Source: Candidatus Nomurabacteria bacterium
GTDB lineage: Bacteria; Patescibacteriota; Minisyncoccia; Phycocordibacterales; UBA9973
Assembly (NCBI GenBank): GCA_016699365.1
Contig: CP064973.1
Coordinates: 64,195 to 128,194 of the forward strand
Length of the DNA stretch: 64,000 bases
Reading direction: 5' to 3'
Part shown: piece by piece, positions 4,601 through 63,920 of the stretch
How the letters are laid out: each line of letters opens with the position of its first letter
How positions within the stretch are numbered: position 1 is the first letter of the stretch
Translations under genes and position numbers: made by a program
Notes under the pieces: model-generated
The model's input: the letters and a program-made list of their open reading frames with translations, nothing else
Databases searched by the model: none
What the model was told of the DNA's origin: nothing

Positions 4601-4843
4601 GTTTGCTTTTGCATAATATTCATCAAACTTTGGTTCACCAAGAGAAAATGATGTGAACTCAAGCATGAATTTTTTCTCTGAGTAATCGTTTATCGGAGAA
4701 AATTCTTTGAACACTTCTTTTAGGCCGTGTTCTATGAGCCATTTGTATGAGGCAAGTTGTGTCTCAAGTAAGTTTGGAAATTCGACCAGTGGTTTTTTGT
4801 ATTTTGAAAAATACTTCTTCTCGATTTTTGTTTTTGTCGACAT
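1652..4843 (-). CDS. rpoB: DNA-directed RNA polymerase beta subunit (short 1063-aa form)
   Basis: 1063-aa ORF with typical RpoB blocks (...GPGGLTRERAGLEVRDVHTSHYGRVCPIHTPEGPNIGLI..., ...MPFMADGTPIDIVLTPLGVPSRMN...). Followed by rpoC. Confidence 0.95.
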   Translation of the reverse strand: MSTKTKIEKKYFSKYKKPLVEFPNLLETQLASYKWLIEHGLKEVFKEFSPINDYSEKKFMLEFTSFSLGEPKFDEYYAKANKLTYDAQLKARVKLMNKTLGGSSKEQEIFLADIPLMTDHGTFIINGVERVIVSQLARSFGVFFTDLDLKGKKLFGAKIIPARGVWIEIESDSDGVLYVRIDKKRKFSITSLLRVLGFTDESMLAAAATDEVRHILKLSIEKDPAKTSDESFIEIYKRLRDGDLATTENAKEFINSLFSSERYDLSPVGRFRFNKRFGKPMTDKDLERRTISKEDLMVIVEHIISLNNTPNSKADDIDHLGQRRVRYVGELLQQKIRVGMTQIKRNIQDRMSTIDVATALPINIINQRPLQARIKEFFTTNQLSQFMSQENVLNEIEHLRILSALGPGGLTRERAGLEVRDVHTSHYGRVCPIHTPEGPNIGLILHLSTYARVNDFGIIETPYAKVKNGVITKEIVYLNALEEEQYNIAHSGIKYTEDGKIVEDMVEARVKTEPGLIARAEVDYIDVSTNQAFSIATSMIPFLENDDANRALMGSNMQKQAMACVRPEAPLVATGMEELASRYSGRLIVAKEDGEVTYVDAKKITVENSKGKKEDYNLMSFQRTNNFSSFHQRPSVSIGDKVKKGMILADTSTTAHGQIALGQNALIAFMSWNGSNYEDAIILSERLVKESKFTSIYIEEFVCIVRDTKLGPEITTRDIPNVGEIKLKDLDEDGIVRVGAEVRENDILVGKITPKGETELTAEERLLRSIFAEKARDVKDTSLRMEHGKRGRIIGVKIFSRDQGHNLESGIIKKVVIEIAQIRNISVGDKLAGRHGNKGVISIILPEEEMPFMADGTPIDIVLTPLGVPSRMNLGQILEMHLGYAANALGYQAVVPSFCGATIQEIKGELVKAGMPESGKMKLFDGRTGEEFEQDIAVGYMYILKLHHMVEDKIHMRSIGAYSLITQQPLGGKAQGGGQRFGEMEVWALEGYGASHILREMITIKSDDIMGRSATFDSIIKGEEILPPNAPASFNVLLNYLRGLSLNVDLKKKGRTKEKLNGA

Positions 4844-5068
4844 GTGGTGTTTTTGCTTAATGAGTAAAAAAATAAAAACTCAGGGCACTAAAAAGTACCT
4901 TTTGTGTAAGGCTAACGCTTTTTATTGGTTTGTTTCAGCAAATTTATAAATTGCTTTTGGCTAGTAAAGTAGATTGAAGCCTGTCGTAACTCAATCTTTT
5001 CAATCAAAATCAGTATACTCTAGCCGCAATACCTTGTCAAATATTACAAAATGACCCAATTTTGGGAT

Positions 5069-5749
5069 TTATTTACCCTTTTTCCACTCTTCTATTTTCT
5101 TGTGATCCCCTGACATAAGCACCTTTGGGACCCTGTATTTTTTACCCTTGAATTCCAAGATTTCTGGTCTAGTATAGAATTCGCTCGAAGACACCCTTTC
5201 CTCCTCCAAAGAGTCATGTTTACCTAGTACTCCTGGAATCTGTCGGGAAATACAATCGACAAGTATCATTGCTGGCAACTCCCCACCAGTCAGTACATAG
5301 TCCCCAATCGAAATTTTATCTGTCTTCAGTATCTTATCCACACGAGCATCTATACCTTCATAACGTCCGCAAATCAAAATTATATCTGAATATTTTTTAA
5401 CTGAATCTTTCGCATAAGCTGTAGTAAATTTTTTACCACTCGGAACAAAATTTATTATTTTTGTCTTCCCTCCCTTTTTAGTTTTTTTTAAAGCACTCTC
5501 CACTGCTTTCACAACAGGCTCTGCGCGGATTATCATACCTGGCCCACCGCCATATGGTCTATCGTCGACAACCTGTGACACATTCCCATCAGGCCAGACT
5601 TTCTTGTATTTTCCGGTTACAAACTTACGAGGATTATAGAAATTTACTTTTATCTTTTTCTCTTTTATTGCACGTCCAATAATCGATTCTTTTAAATATG
5701 AATCGAAGCTCTCAGGAAAAAGTGTAATAATATGAAATGTCATTTGCAA
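5069..5749 (-). CDS. trmD: tRNA (guanine37-N1)-methyltransferase
   Basis: 226 aa. N-terminus HIITLFPESF... and a GGGPGM motif, characteristic of TrmD (SPOUT fold). Confidence 0.85.
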   Translation of the reverse strand: MQMTFHIITLFPESFDSYLKESIIGRAIKEKKIKVNFYNPRKFVTGKYKKVWPDGNVSQVVDDRPYGGGPGMIIRAEPVVKAVESALKKTKKGGKTKIINFVPSGKKFTTAYAKDSVKKYSDIILICGRYEGIDARVDKILKTDKISIGDYVLTGGELPAMILVDCISRQIPGVLGKHDSLEEERVSSSEFYTRPEILEFKGKKYRVPKVLMSGDHKKIEEWKKGK

Positions 5750-49603: not shown

Positions 49604-50031
49604 GAACCATACATTTGGCTTTCTTCATAACTTTTGTCTTCATTTAATCTTGCTCTGAGTAAAGTCGATATTCAAATTCATCGAGGATAAGCATTTTATC
49701 ATTTTCACAAATACTTTTCCTCCGTTCTAACAATCACTCTTCCAATTTTGCACGCAAACACAGTGCCTTTTCAGCCACAAGAGCTGCTTTCTCCATCCAT
49801 CCAACTGCATCCTCTTCTTCTTTTGGGTCTTTTTGAGGTATTTCATAAACAATGTTTGTAAATTAAAAATATTTGTGGAAAGCAAGAGATTTGAAACTTA
49901 CAGTTTCAGTACACCTTTTCGATGAATTCGGAATAAATTCCTCATTCATAACGAAAAGCTCTTCAAATCTCTCACGCGAGCAAAGCAGTTTGCTCGCTCG
50001 TCTCCGCAGTTCTTCACTGCGTTCAGACCTG

Positions 50032-50118
50032 CGGAGACGGAGAGATTTGAACTCTCGAAGGCTTTGACACCTTGCCGCCTTTCCAAGGTAGTGCACTAGA
50101 CCGCTATGCGACGTCTCC
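50032..50118 (-). tRNA. tRNA-Ser (anticodon GGA), class II tRNA with long variable arm, CCA not encoded
   Basis: Minus strand: GGAGACG-TC-GCAT...TGC (D arm, GG in loop) - anticodon loop TTGGAAA (U33, GGA, A37) - 18-nt variable hairpin (AAGG/CCTT) - T arm GAGAG-TTCAAAT-CTCTC - CGTCTCC-G. Perfect 7-bp acceptor stem. One A-C mismatch in the anticodon stem. Confidence 0.8.
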
Positions 50119-59402: not shown

Positions 59403-59937
59403 ACAAAACATATATTTTTTCTATGGAACGAAATGTGTATTGAAAAACACCTCGGCAGGTACGACGGTACCGTACGGAGAAAATTTCTAGCAAGAAATTT
59501 TTGTGTGTTTTGAAATATACATGAGTGTATATTGTATGTGATTTTCAGATTTCCTAATAGGAATCGAATAATTAGTACTTCTCGGCTCAACACATTACTG
59601 TGCGTACACCTAAAGCCTATCAACGTGATCATCTCTCACGGTTCTCAAACGATTCCTTATCTTAGGGGGGGCTTCCTTCTTAGATGCTTTCAGAAGTTAT
59701 CCCTTCCCGACATAGCTACCGAGCAGTCCATTTGGTAATAGAGCTCGTACACCAGAGGTCAGTCCACTCCGGTCCTCTCGTACTAGGAGCAGCGCCCTTC
59801 AAGAATCAACGAGCGCAGTAGATAGGAGACCAACCTGTCTCACGACGGTTTGAACCCAGCTCGCGTACCTTTTTAATTAGCGAACAGCTAAACCCTTGGC
59901 AGCTTCTCCACCGCCAGGATAAGGTGAGCCGACATCG

Positions 59938-60299
59938 CTGTCGATTTATCTCAAGAAAAATAAAAAACTTTTCAATCTTTCTTGAGAGTCTTCTGTCACC
60001 AGAAGGATCGGACTATATCTTCATCCTTTCATATAAATATGATTAGGAGATTGGCGTTTAGTCTCTGAGGATTCTTCATGTCTTTTGTAAAAAAGATTTA
60101 GAAGTCTTTCCTGCTGATTGTCTCAACATGCATAATTTTTTAAAACCACTCAGTATATTCTTTCGAATTGCTGTTTGGGTATATGCATTTAAAAGAGAGT
60201 TCCAGCATTTGGCCAATTTTTTGTATCTTTTATTTTGCTATCTACAACAAATATAAAAGACGGCTAATAATATCTCTATCATGGCACCCCGATATGTTA
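59938..60299 (-). mobile_element. group I intron (362 nt, ORF-less) in 23S rRNA domain V (E. coli ~2500 region)
   Basis: Exon sequence ...GGAGTTCGGCACCT | [insert] | CGATGTCGGCTC. 5' exon ends in U, insert ends in G. The insert contains S-element AAGATATAGTCC (plus 60010-60021, rc) and R-like TCAGAGACTAAACG. Confidence 0.75.
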
Positions 60300-60521
60300 A
60301 GGTGCCGAACTCCGCCGTCGATATGAACTCTTAGGCGGAACTAGCCTGTTATCCCCGGAGTAGCTTCTATCCGTTAATCTTCGGCCGCATCTAATGCGTA
60401 CCATCGGTTCACTAGGTTCTGCTTTCGCACCTGCTCGAGATGTCCCTCTTACAGTCAAGCCAGCTTGTGCCCTTACACTATCGGCACGATTTCCATACGC
60501 GCCTAGCTGACCTTAATAAAC

Positions 60522-60562
<41 letters not shown>

Positions 60563-60869
60563 ACCCACCAGATACTGTCTCTCTGTGTTTTTGCCACAGG
60601 GATTAGAATATACATGTCACAAGAATGGTATTTCACTGACGAGTATTACACAGCCGAGACCGTGCACATAACCTCTCCCATCTATGCTACGCAGGTAAAA
60701 CGTATATTCAATATCAAGTTGTAGTAAAGCTTCCGGGGTCTTTTCGTCTATCTGCGCTTAACCGGCATCTTCACCGGTATTGTATTTTCACCGAGCTATT
60801 CCCCGAGACAGTTCTCCAGTCATTACACCATTCGTGCGCGTCGGAACTTACCCGACAAGGTATTTCGCT

Positions 60870-61075
60870 CTTCTATACCTAAGAAGGACTCTATCTTCAT
60901 CCTCTCTTTCGAGGTGGGATGCTTGACGCTGGTCTCTCGTTAGTCAAGTTTGGACCACATATCATTACTGACATGTAGGTAGCTTTCGAATGATTTAATA
61001 ATTTTTTAATTTAATTGTTTACCTTTTTCTACAACAGTCCCAGTCCTTTCACATACAACCGAAGTCATATGCGAA
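60870..61075 (-). mobile_element. small group I-like intron (206 nt, ORF-less) in 23S rRNA at the GGTCCTAAGGT|AGCGAAAT site (E. coli ~1917 region)
   Basis: Conserved exon junction GGTCCTAAGGT ... AGCGAAATaCCTTGTCGGGTAAGTTCCGAC interrupted by a 206-nt AT-rich insert containing AAGATAGAGTCC (S-like) and GAGAGACCAGCG (R-like). Exon ends in U, insert ends in G. Confidence 0.6.
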
Positions 61076-61110
<35 letters not shown>

Positions 61111-61961
61111 CAGGGCTTATATCAGTCAGCTTCTCCCTACCCGAAGGCAGAGAGAAACCGCCGATATTTGACCTTCTCGCATTGGTCAGGTGTCACCCCC
61201 TATACATCCTCTTACGAGTTCGCAGGGAGCTGTGTTTTTGGTAAACAGTTGCCAGAGATACTTTCGCTGCGCCCCCCATAATGGTGAACTACAATATAAA
61301 TACTGAAGTCACCATTATGGGGGGAAGCCTTATTCCGAAGTTACGGCTGCTTTTTTGCCGAGTTCCTTGGGGAACACTCACTCGTTCGTCTTGGTCTTCT
61401 CGACCCGATCACCTGTGTTGGTTTGCGGTACGGTTTCTGTTCTGTTATGCTTAGAAATTTTTCTTGGAAGCGTGCTTTGTAAAATTTACATGGGCGAACC
61501 CACATATTTATGCTCTACTTGGATGTCGCTTTTACGCCAGTTTCCGGATTTGCCTAGAAACCACCCTCATAGCACAAACAGAAATCCAATAATCTGCTCT
61601 ACATACTACCCTCCGTCCTTCCATCGCACAGAAAAGAAGTCATGGAATATTAACCATGTGTCCATCACGTTCGGCTATCGCCATCTGCTTAGGACCGACT
61701 AACCCTTGGCTGATCAACATCGCCAAGGAAACCTTGATCTTTCGACGTGCAGGGATCTCACCTGCATTGCGGTTACTTGTGCCAACATTCTTACTTCGAC
61801 ACGCTCCAGCATGGGTCACCCCTTTGCCTTCAACGCAGAGTCGAATACTCTCCTACCACTCCATATTTCCTCAGAAATATGAAATCCTCAAATTCGGTAC
61901 AATGCTTAGCCCCGATTATCTGCGGCGCGGAATCTCTTGATGAGTGAGCTGTTACGCTTTC

Positions 61962-61993
<32 letters not shown>

Positions 61994-62572
61994 TCATTGT
62001 CGAAGAAATTCCACATCCTTGGTTTGCACTTAACATTGATTTAGGGACCTTAATTAGAGATCTGGGCTGTTTCCCTTTTTACTGACGGAGCTTCGCCCCC
62101 GTAGTCTAACTGCTGCGCTTTTAACTCTTGGTATTCGGAGTTTGATAGATGTCGCGAGATTGCTCCCTGTCGAAATCTTCCAGTGCTCTACCCCCAAGAG
62201 GAACGCACAACGCTAGCCCTAAAGCTATTTCGGAGAGAACCAGCTATTACCAGGTTCGATTAGCTTTTCACTCCAACCCACAAGTCATCCGAGAGTGTTA
62301 AACGGCTCACCGGTTCGGGCCTCCAGTGTGATTTCTCACACCTTCACCCTGCTCATGGGTAGCTCACCTGGCTTCGGGTCTTATGTATACTACCAATTAC
62401 GCGCTATTAACACTTGGTTTCCCTGCAGCTCCAGTCTTTTAAAACTTTAGCTAAGCAGCATACATAAACTCGTTGGCTCATTCTTCAATAGGCACGCCAT
62501 GGCGGACCCGAAGGCCCGCTCTGACTCTTTGTAAACATATGGTTTCAGGTCTATTTCACTGTCCTTTCGGAC

Positions 62573-62611
<39 letters not shown>

Positions 62612-63365
62612 ATCTCTACATGTATTTAGCCTTGCCGGTTAGTTCCGGCGGATTCCCTCAAGCTATTCGTGTCTTGAGGTACTCAAGAATGACAACAAAA
62701 GAGATATATTAATTTCGTGTACCGGGCTATCACCGTCTTTGGCGTTGCTTTCCAACAACTTCTACTATCAATACATTTTGTAACTCTTTACGTAATAAAA
62801 CGTCGTTATCACCTTACAACCCCGATTAATAATATCTTGCGACATTATCATTCGGTTTGGGCTCTTTCCATTTCGCTCGCCGCTACTTCGGAAATTTTGT
62901 CCTTACGGACTTTGTTTTCTTTTCCTCCAGGTACTGAGATGTTTCACTTCCCTGGGTATACTCTTTTTGATTAATCAAAAAGTTATTGAGGTTTACTCAA
63001 TAGGGTTTCCCCATTCGGAGATCTTCGGATATATCGGTTGCTAGGCACCTCCCCGAAGCTTATCGCAGCCATGCTACGTCCTTCATCGCCATGTAGAGTC
63101 AAGGCATCCACCATATGCTCTTAATTTCCTATTAGGAAATCTAAAAACCACATACTCACTAAATACTCTCTCCGGAATATTTAGTGTTTTGAATTCATAC
63201 TAAAACCAAAATCCAACCGCTTGGATAATATCAATATCTAGTATGAATTCACTCTGTTTACGACACGACTTAAAAGACCCCATGTTCTAGATAACCTAGA
63301 ACAAAAAGATTGTATGCCGTAACAGAATTCAGTTTTCAATGAGTAATCGTCCGGTAAATTTTTGA

Positions 63366-63566: not shown

Positions 63567-63920
63567 TTATTTATCTATATTTTCAATAAATTTACCGAGA
63601 CCAGAATGCAAATTTTTAAGTCCGGTTTTCATAGTTTCCTTCAAATCTTTACTGAAGTCTTTTCCAGCATCTTTCATGCGAAGATATGTTTGCAGTGCAG
63701 AACGTCCTGTAGAAATAGCACTGAATTGAAACTGGCCTTCAACATGAAATGTATCGAGTAAATCATACTCTGATAAATAACATACGGAAAACACATTATC
63801 AAAAACCCTACCAATGAAAACCACTTCGCCGGGCATAAGCTTTTCCTTGCTGCTAAGCGGAGACAAGAGCAAATTTTTATATTCATCTCCATAAGTTTCA
63901 CTGCTTAATTTTTTAAACAA
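63567..63920 (-). CDS. hypothetical protein
   Basis: 117-aa ORF upstream of the rRNA locus. It occupies the place where a 16S gene would be in a canonical operon. Confidence 0.35.
   Translation of the reverse strand: MFKKLSSETYGDEYKNLLLSPLSSKEKLMPGEVVFIGRVFDNVFSVCYLSEYDLLDTFHVEGQFQFSAISTGRSALQTYLRMKDAGKDFSKDLKETMKTGLKNLHSGLGKFIENIDK

Follow-up and report, generated by a model that had tools for sequence, protein, structure and literature searches.

Group I ribozymes are treated as being built of two universal halves, P3-P7 and P5-P4-P6, the second of which has been described as universally conserved and as scaffolding the catalytic domain (PMC6257700). In the 23S rRNA of CPR bacteria, group I introns are known from position 1931 (site 23IS7 of Tsurumaki et al. 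2024), which is usually occupied by introns with LAGLIDADG_1 genes (PMC11270868), and introns at L1931, including those of archaea, have been typed as IB4 (Nawrocki et al. 2018, PMC6125680). The CPR survey classified inserts by Rfam model and left the short ORF-less ones uncharacterised, and it described short non-intron inserts as clustering at 23IS2 and 23IS4, which are known sites of intervening sequences processed by RNase III (PMC11270868). No short inserts at site 1931 were found in the supplement of Tsurumaki et al. 2024 (PMC11270868). The literature that we searched, with incomplete coverage, yielded no natural group I introns without P4-P6, which is weak evidence of novelty.

The smallest self-splicing bacterial group I introns are those of the Azoarcus tRNA-Ile (~205 nt) and the Anabaena tRNA-Leu (~249 nt). 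They resemble the 206-nt insert that we describe here in their length, in their terminal G, and apparently in a P2 GNRA loop that sits on P8, but they differ from it in having a complete P4-P6 and a short hairpin P1 with a U.G wobble, and in having no long-range exon helices. Ribozymes engineered without P5-P4-P6 likewise consist of the catalytic P3-P7/P8/P9 half without the scaffold, and they show weak activity under forcing conditions; those of Ikawa et al. in 2000 were reportedly poor catalysts. Whereas these are laboratory deletions, the insert belongs to a family that occurs in nature, is under purifying selection in more than 100 lineages, and has additional helices that anchor the exons. 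The group I-derived introns of lichen rDNA are also short (mean ~233 nt), and they are still removed in vivo after losing parts needed for catalysis in vitro (bioRxiv 10.1101/2021.05.01.442275). Unlike the insert, they are eukaryotic, of type IC1 (PMC3160393) and located at other sites, they show partial losses rather than a clean excision of P4-P6, and coevolving long exon guides have not been described in them.

The insert after U1931

The window, by which we mean the whole 64-kb stretch of DNA analysed, contains a single detected 23S rRNA gene (59553-63134, minus strand), and this gene is full-length (Rfam LSU_rRNA_bacteria, 2226 bits, model positions 1-2925), so any insert in it must be dealt with by the cell. 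Global alignment with rrlB of E. coli K-12 placed a 206-nt insert at 60870-61075, also on the minus strand as are all features below, between E. coli U1931 and A1932; the Rfam LSU alignment has an insert of ~209 nt here. A first-pass annotation of the sequence had given exactly these coordinates and this length but had located the insert at about position 1917, which the alignment corrects to 1931. The conserved stretch GGUCCUAAGGU|AGCGAAAU is restored solely when the boundaries are drawn at 60870 and 61075, which leaves U as the last base of the 5' exon and G as the last base of the insert, both as the annotation had noted. It was also right that a conserved 23S flank is split here, but not in the letters of the 3' exon, which reads AAAUACCUUG in this host and not AAAUUCCUUG. 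Both motifs that it quoted, one S-like and one R-like, are present; GAGAGACCAGCG lies at intron positions 138-149 and AAGAUAGAGUCC at 179-190.

A two-anchor pattern describing the arrangement of the insert had one match in the window and none in 100 shuffles. The same 206 nt were present, with 100% identity, in the NCBI MAG GCA_017991335.1 and in an independent ENA assembly, which rules out the assembly chimera that had been named as a possible artefact. Against rrlB, the 23S gene of the window has six inserts of at least 8 nt, the largest being the 206 nt after U1931 and 362 nt after U2500 (59938-60299). The insert at U2500 also follows an exon-end U and ends in G, and it is an ordinary ORF-less group I intron that matches Rfam Intron_gpI with 80 bits at 59989-60265. 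This bears out the earlier proposal of two introns in one 23S gene, and the 206-nt insert is, as stated there, devoid of an endonuclease ORF.

Several other features of the locus were observed. The ENA contig that confirms the insert has just 82% identity to the window upstream of 23S position ~1815 (contig positions 1-446), and it looks like a chimeric join of the 23S genes of two organisms, a typical rRNA assembly artefact. The remaining 23S expansions include 68 nt after E. coli position 286 (window 62774-62841) and smaller ones after 227, 1504, and 1865, and there is a 17-nt deletion near the 3' end, around E. coli 2783-2799. In the whole 64 kb, an Rfam scan detected the 23S, a 5S, and a single tRNA-Ser (50031-50118) and did not detect a 16S rRNA, so the rRNA genes appear to be unlinked here; an ORF lies upstream of the 23S gene at 63567-63920.

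Relatives of the insert and the group I core

Relatives were collected in two scans. The first covered one genome per species and required the exon, 160-190 nt, GAAGATANAGTC, 5-35 nt, and the exon again; it returned 62 loci, 61 with the architecture of the window insert and one (L054) that is an ordinary compact group I intron, under record titles that are almost all Paceibacterota, Parcubacteria, Nomurabacteria, or Taylorbacteria. The second scan searched metagenome contigs independently of site for AGAGACCA...GAAGATAGAGTCC and returned at least 120 loci. Together the scans gave at least 141 unique inserts of 140-294 nt (nearly all 186-294 nt), all at L1931 and mostly labelled as Paceibacteria-type Patescibacteria, with a second host group that differs in the sequences of helix 69 and of the 3' exon. 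Because the S motif was fixed in both patterns and the R motif also in that of the second scan, the invariance of S and R is no evidence of conservation. Among the matches listed, every mini-type insert in the metagenome loci is at L1931, and nhmmer (window and L003-L070) found no full-length copies of the family at other sites, the matches elsewhere being just to the R-S core of ordinary group I introns. Identical inserts were also seen in MAGs labelled 'Nanoarchaeia archaeon' and 'Saccharibacteria', and one carrier is labelled 'Segetibacter' (L017 and L065, and also L032); these labels are probably binning or labelling errors around rRNA contigs.

We aligned 128 non-redundant sequences, each extended by 20 nt into the 5' exon and by 30 nt into the 3' exon, and counted pairs in an explicit pseudoknotted structure. 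Pairing was found in 90.4% of cells, compared to 76.2% after shuffling (none of 500 shuffles reached the observed value) and 36-46% when the partners were slid by 1-3 columns, and the covariation score of 0.43 fell to 0.17 with shuffling and to no more than 0.12 with sliding. Hairpin A, helix X, P3 (6 of 6 pairs), P8 (3 of 4), P9 (4 of 4), and two intron–exon helices that we call E1 and E2 show compensatory changes. To call the insert degenerate, as the first-pass annotation did, is thus misleading, since compensatory changes in every variable helix and in both intron–exon helices indicate strong structural constraint over some 140 distinct sequences.

The Rfam Intron_gpI model gives the insert 22.2 bits (local E = 0.0013), which is below the gathering cut-off of 50 bits, so that the insert is not called at this threshold, and none of the 11 mini inserts scanned (the window's and those of 10 relatives) reaches it. 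CPR rRNA surveys that use Intron_gpI would therefore leave such inserts unclassified as introns. The earlier suspicion of a minimal variant is supported, and standard models miss it. Though below the cut-off, the alignment threads the 5' hairpin, P3, both P7 strands, P8, J8/7, P9, and the terminal G, while skipping 89 model positions inside P3. The strands of P3, CUUGAC (60943-60948) and GUCAAG (60922-60927), enclose a loop of just 15 nt, UAACGAGAGACCAGC (60928-60942), which holds the P7 5' strand GACC (60931-60934) and nothing else of the core. P5-P4-P6, which belongs between the P3 5' strand and P7, is absent from the insert, and 15 nt leave no room for it; the closing of P3 over this short loop at the place of P4-P6 explains why the score is just 22 bits.

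The rest of the core follows in the usual order. P8 (60899-60920) is a hairpin with compensatory changes in three of its four basal pairs, and it is followed by J8/7 and the P7 3' strand, GAAGAUAGAGUCC (60886-60898), which fits the Rfam consensus gAAGAUAUAGUC, with an invariance forced by the search patterns. P7 consists of 3 bp (GAC/GUC) and one more pair (C-G) across a bulged A, with a G-C pair at the usual guanosine-binding position that is invariant, partly by the design of the scans, which fixed the S motif (and, in the second scan, R), so that covariation lends P7 no support. All four stem pairs of the P9 hairpin (60871-60885) show compensatory changes. The terminal G (omega G, 60870) is a G in 62 of the 62 matches of the first scan, whose pattern left this base unspecified.

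About 120 of the 206 nt belong to an expanded P1/P2 exon-binding domain. On this anatomy the insert is not a complete miniature group I ribozyme, as its description as near the minimum size for one had implied, but one that has lost its P4-P6 domain. The designation group I-like holds for its position, its ends, its R/S core, and its homology to bona fide group I introns, and it fails for P4-P6.

The 5' domain and its exon guides

Hairpin A (intron 1-28, window 61048-61075) begins at intron base 1 and has 12 bp, all with compensatory changes, and a UUCG loop. It is followed by the 5' strand of helix X, GGACU (intron 30-34, 61042-61046), which pairs with GGUCC (intron 120-124, 60952-60956); the pair counts include GC95/UA27 and CG97/UA14. 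Enclosed by helix X are a guide for the 5' exon, a variable linker, a guide for the splice junction, and hairpin B. The linker (60984-61028) is A-rich and makes up the rest of the expanded P1 loop; it varies in length and sequence around a conserved UAAACA, and comparison of the relatives found no conserved helix in it. One relative, L084, is a mini-type intron of 415 nt with ~200 extra nt in this linker, which therefore tolerates large insertions.

The 5' exon guide, GGGACUGUUGUAG (intron 35-47, 61029-61041), is the reverse complement of the host's own variant of helix 69, a functionally central element of the large subunit. The helix E1 that it forms takes in the loop and 3' strand of helix 69, E. 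coli 1914-1926 (61081-61093), with compensatory changes at 1920, 1921, and 1924. At least three host variants of helix 69 are each matched by the guide of their intron. Host exons with AACGGUCC at 1918-1925 face the guide GGAC(U/G/C)GUU (GGACNGUU), those with AAUCGUCC face GGACGAUU, those with AAUCGUUC face GAACGAUU or GAACGGUU, and those with AACGAUCC face GGAUUGUU; in the full-size relatives described below, E1 joins AAUUGUCC with GGACAAUU or GGACAGUU. The AUAG that follows this block in the intron pairs with the invariant exon CUAU (1914-1917) in 93-127 of the 128 sequences, which extends E1 over 1914-1926, for 13 bp. E1 was also present in the minimum free energy (MFE) structure of the window intron and its flanks, from thermodynamics alone (z = -6.0).

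Three other pairings were considered and rejected. One is a P4-like helix that RNAalifold proposed, (G/A)GG:CCU, and another is CUGUU:AAACAG; in both cases the intron bases follow the exon, and not their supposed partner, in hosts with another helix 69. The pairing of GGACU (intron 30-34) with AGUCC of the S element, seen in a single-sequence MFE fold, was set aside because GGACU covaries with intron 120-124 instead.

The second guide, GCUACCU (intron 93-99, 60977-60983), is nearly invariant and complements exactly the junction that ligation would create, AGGU|AGC, which answers the earlier call for a manual check of P1 and P10 pairing with the flanking exons. Its ACCU complements the last four bases of the 5' exon, AGGU (1928-1931, 61076-61079), as P1 in 128 of 128 sequences, and its G(C/U)U complements the first three bases of the 3' exon, AGC (1932-1934, 60867-60869), as P10, again in 128 of 128. 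The polarity is that of a group I internal guide sequence, with the 5' part on the 3' exon and the 3' part on the 5' exon. Since the exons are invariant, covariation lends no support to P1 or P10; GCUACCU formed no part of either search pattern, and by our own arithmetic the chance of a given 7-mer within 200 nt is ~0.012. The partner of U1931 is an A in all 128 sequences, making a U-A pair in place of the canonical U.G wobble, and it is also an A in the full-size introns L147, L168, and L179. In a fourth full-size intron, L156, the homologous stretch reads GCUGCCU, and the canonical U.G pair that this allows supports the register of the guide.

Hairpin B (60957-60976) occupies the position of P2 and has a GUAA tetraloop in the window and a GNRA loop in 122 of 128 sequences, while the middle of the hairpin was poorly aligned by MAFFT. 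The loop covaries with the fourth base pair of P8, GUAA occurring with C-G in 86 of 86 cases and GAAA with U-A in 21 of 30, and this is the pattern that would be expected of a GNRA loop in the minor groove of a helix. In small bacterial group I introns the P2 GNRA loop docks on P8, and the covariation suggests that a group I-like three-dimensional arrangement may have been kept. E1, P1, hairpin B, and helix X adjoin with linkers of 0-1 nt, so that they could form a four-way junction.

The 3' exon is bound by the loop of P9. In the window, the loop AGGUAU (60875-60880) pairs with the exon AUACCU (1938-1943, 60858-60863) to form E2, with counts across the alignment of AU93/UA27 and UA100/AU16/CG2. 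Loops with AGGAAU face exons with AUUCCU, GGGGUAC faces GUACCUU, and AAGGAGAUA faces UAUUUCCUU; both sides have switched even within the window's own clade, in L032 and L034. E2 and the stem of P9 are predicted to form a pseudoknot whose connecting loop holds the 3' splice site.

Many relatives carry a further insert ~20 nt downstream, after GUCGGGUA(A/G), near site 1951. It was seen in the 3' exon flanks of L012, L015, L020, L043, L052, L057, L076, L078, L081, and L092, and in L043 it is a group I intron detected by Rfam (4700-5128). Where this insert is present, the exon bases paired by the P9 loop lie in a mini-exon of ~20 nt between two introns.

Origin and removal of the mini introns

Four full-size introns, L147, L168, L179 (689 nt), and L156 (857 nt), have the same first hairpin, helix X, E1 guide, internal guide sequence, and hairpin B as the mini introns, and this 5' domain is followed by P3, J3/4, P4-P6, an ORF, and then the same P7, P8, and P9. 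The ORFs of L179 and L156, the two scanned, are LAGLIDADG_1 genes (E = 2e-26 and 4e-22) of 166-170 aa located in P6. Full-size CPR L1931 introns also share with the mini form the site, the P7-strand variant AGAGACCA/GAAGAUAGAGUCC, and the pairing of the P9 loop with the 3' exon; they differ in having J3/4, P4, P5, P6, and the endonuclease gene where the mini form has 5 nt. An HMM of the mini family matched L179, L168, and L147 in two collinear blocks, HMM positions ~8-136 and ~132-211, separated by 508, 503, and 425 nt, respectively, and the gap coincides exactly with the P3 loop. Two collinear blocks interrupted at this point identify the mini form as a deletion derivative. In an ORF-less intron of 349 nt (L103), which scores 61.7 bits and so lies above the Intron_gpI cut-off, the first hairpin, the E1 guide, and P4-P6 are all present. 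From these comparisons, the mini form descends from true group I introns and has ~5 nt in the place of their P4-P6 and endonuclease gene, and both the 5' domain and the U-A pair are older than the loss of P4-P6.

In the full-size relatives L179, L106, L130, and L168 the LAGLIDADG frame crosses the P6 3' strand, P7, P3, and P8 and ends at a UGA in J8/7 (GAUGAAGAU), which means that the C-terminus of the protein is encoded by the ribozyme core. Two further loci, L073 (2360-2618) and L184, hold canonical group I introns at L1931, in which P1 is short (guide GCCUUA, with a U.G pair) and the P7 strands are of the same AGAGACCA/GAAGAUAGAGUCC variant. The host rRNA of L073 has its best score, 2376 bits, with the archaeal LSU model, so the lineage of these introns does not appear to be confined to one domain.

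Taken together, the insert is probably a group I-derived L1931 intron, one of a conserved mini family that lacks ORFs and is carried mainly by Paceibacteria-type Patescibacteria, and which arose from a full-size LAGLIDADG-encoding L1931 intron by the loss of P4-P6 and of the endonuclease gene in P6. Its removal would proceed by group I chemistry and may be autonomous. The catalytic half that was kept would comprise the P3/P7 pseudoknot with its guanosine-site G-C pair, P8, J8/7, P9, and the terminal G, served by an enlarged substrate-binding 5' domain of E1, P1, P10, and the four-way junction, with the E2 pseudoknot (P9 loop with 1938-1943) presenting the 3' splice site. Free guanosine bound in P7 would attack after U1931, the terminal G would then take the place of the guanosine in P7, and the 5' exon would attack the 3' splice site, so that U1931 becomes joined to A1932 and helix 69 is released to fold. 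The role of the P4-P6 scaffold would be taken by the exon-anchoring helices, the four-way junction, and the tetraloop contact between hairpin B and P8, possibly with the help of protein. That variable helices are compensated, that the guides track the host rRNA, that the terminal G is invariant where the search left it unconstrained, and that E1 would block helix 69 all argue for function and not decay. Caution is called for because P5-P4-P6 has been called universal, because the wobble pair is missing, and because lichen introns can depend on host machinery.

Dependence of this kind is the strongest alternative. The RNA may, although we consider this rather unlikely, use group I chemistry without being autonomous and require a protein, encoded by the host or an intron, or a P4-P6 provided in trans by another intron. 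The loss of the scaffold domain and of the wobble pair would fit such dependence, as would the in vivo removal of the lichen introns without catalytically needed parts and the canonical group I intron in the same 23S gene of the window, but the analysis turned up no candidate protein. A co-resident donor of P4-P6 is not a general solution, since Rfam detected no group I intron near 8 of 10 mini loci (7 of the 8 with a complete 23S gene), in a scan that ORF-interrupted introns would escape. The additional contacts made by E1, E2, the four-way junction, and the hairpin B-P8 pair suggest instead that compensation is RNA-based.

It is less probable still, and in our view distinctly improbable, that the insert is a splicing-dead relic, one that either stays in the mature rRNA as an expansion or is cut out by RNases to leave a fragmented 23S, although it lacks both P4-P6 and the U.G pair and the L1931 intron of Simkania is reportedly unspliced. 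Intervening sequences processed by RNase III are common in bacterial 23S, and many short inserts in CPR rRNA are uncharacterised (PMC11270868). A relic would not be expected to keep a terminal G, the guanosine-binding pair of P7, a guide complementary to the junction, and two exon helices that coevolve with the host, and because E1 sequesters half of helix 69, retention of the insert should be harmful. The known RNase III intervening sequences, moreover, are stem-loops at the tips of helices 25 and 45, which we take to be the sites matching 23IS2 and 23IS4, and the insert lies between U1931 and A1932. A complete, compact, and divergent group I ribozyme that includes P4-P6, in essence the reading of the first-pass annotation, is very improbable and contradicted by the comparative data, despite a length close to that of the ~205-nt Azoarcus intron and the weak full-length Rfam match. 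P3, proven by six compensatory pairs, encloses just 15 nt; the 120 nt upstream correspond by homology to P1/P2 of full-size relatives, whose own P4-P6 lies elsewhere; and in the second host group the P4-like pairings GGG/CCU and CUGUU/AAACAG are lost, their bases tracking the exon instead.

We tentatively suggest, as a possibility that we hold at somewhat less than even, that the mini introns are the first natural family of group I-type ribozymes to splice without P4-P6, with an enlarged substrate domain (the 13-bp helix 69 guide, the four-way junction, and the pseudoknot of the P9 loop and 3' exon) serving as the scaffold, and with a Watson-Crick U-A pair tolerated because the wobble receptor borne by P4-P6 is gone. 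A natural family of half-ribozymes in more than 100 lineages would provide a direct test of how much of the fold catalysis requires and of what can replace the scaffold. The exon sequence that these introns read, 13 nt in helix 69 and 6-9 nt in the 3' exon, is unusually long for group I, and their exon guides would tie the excision of the intron to the folding of an important bridge element of the ribosome. By holding half of helix 69 until excision, the mini introns may, with the same reservation, act as a checkpoint in the folding of the large subunit.
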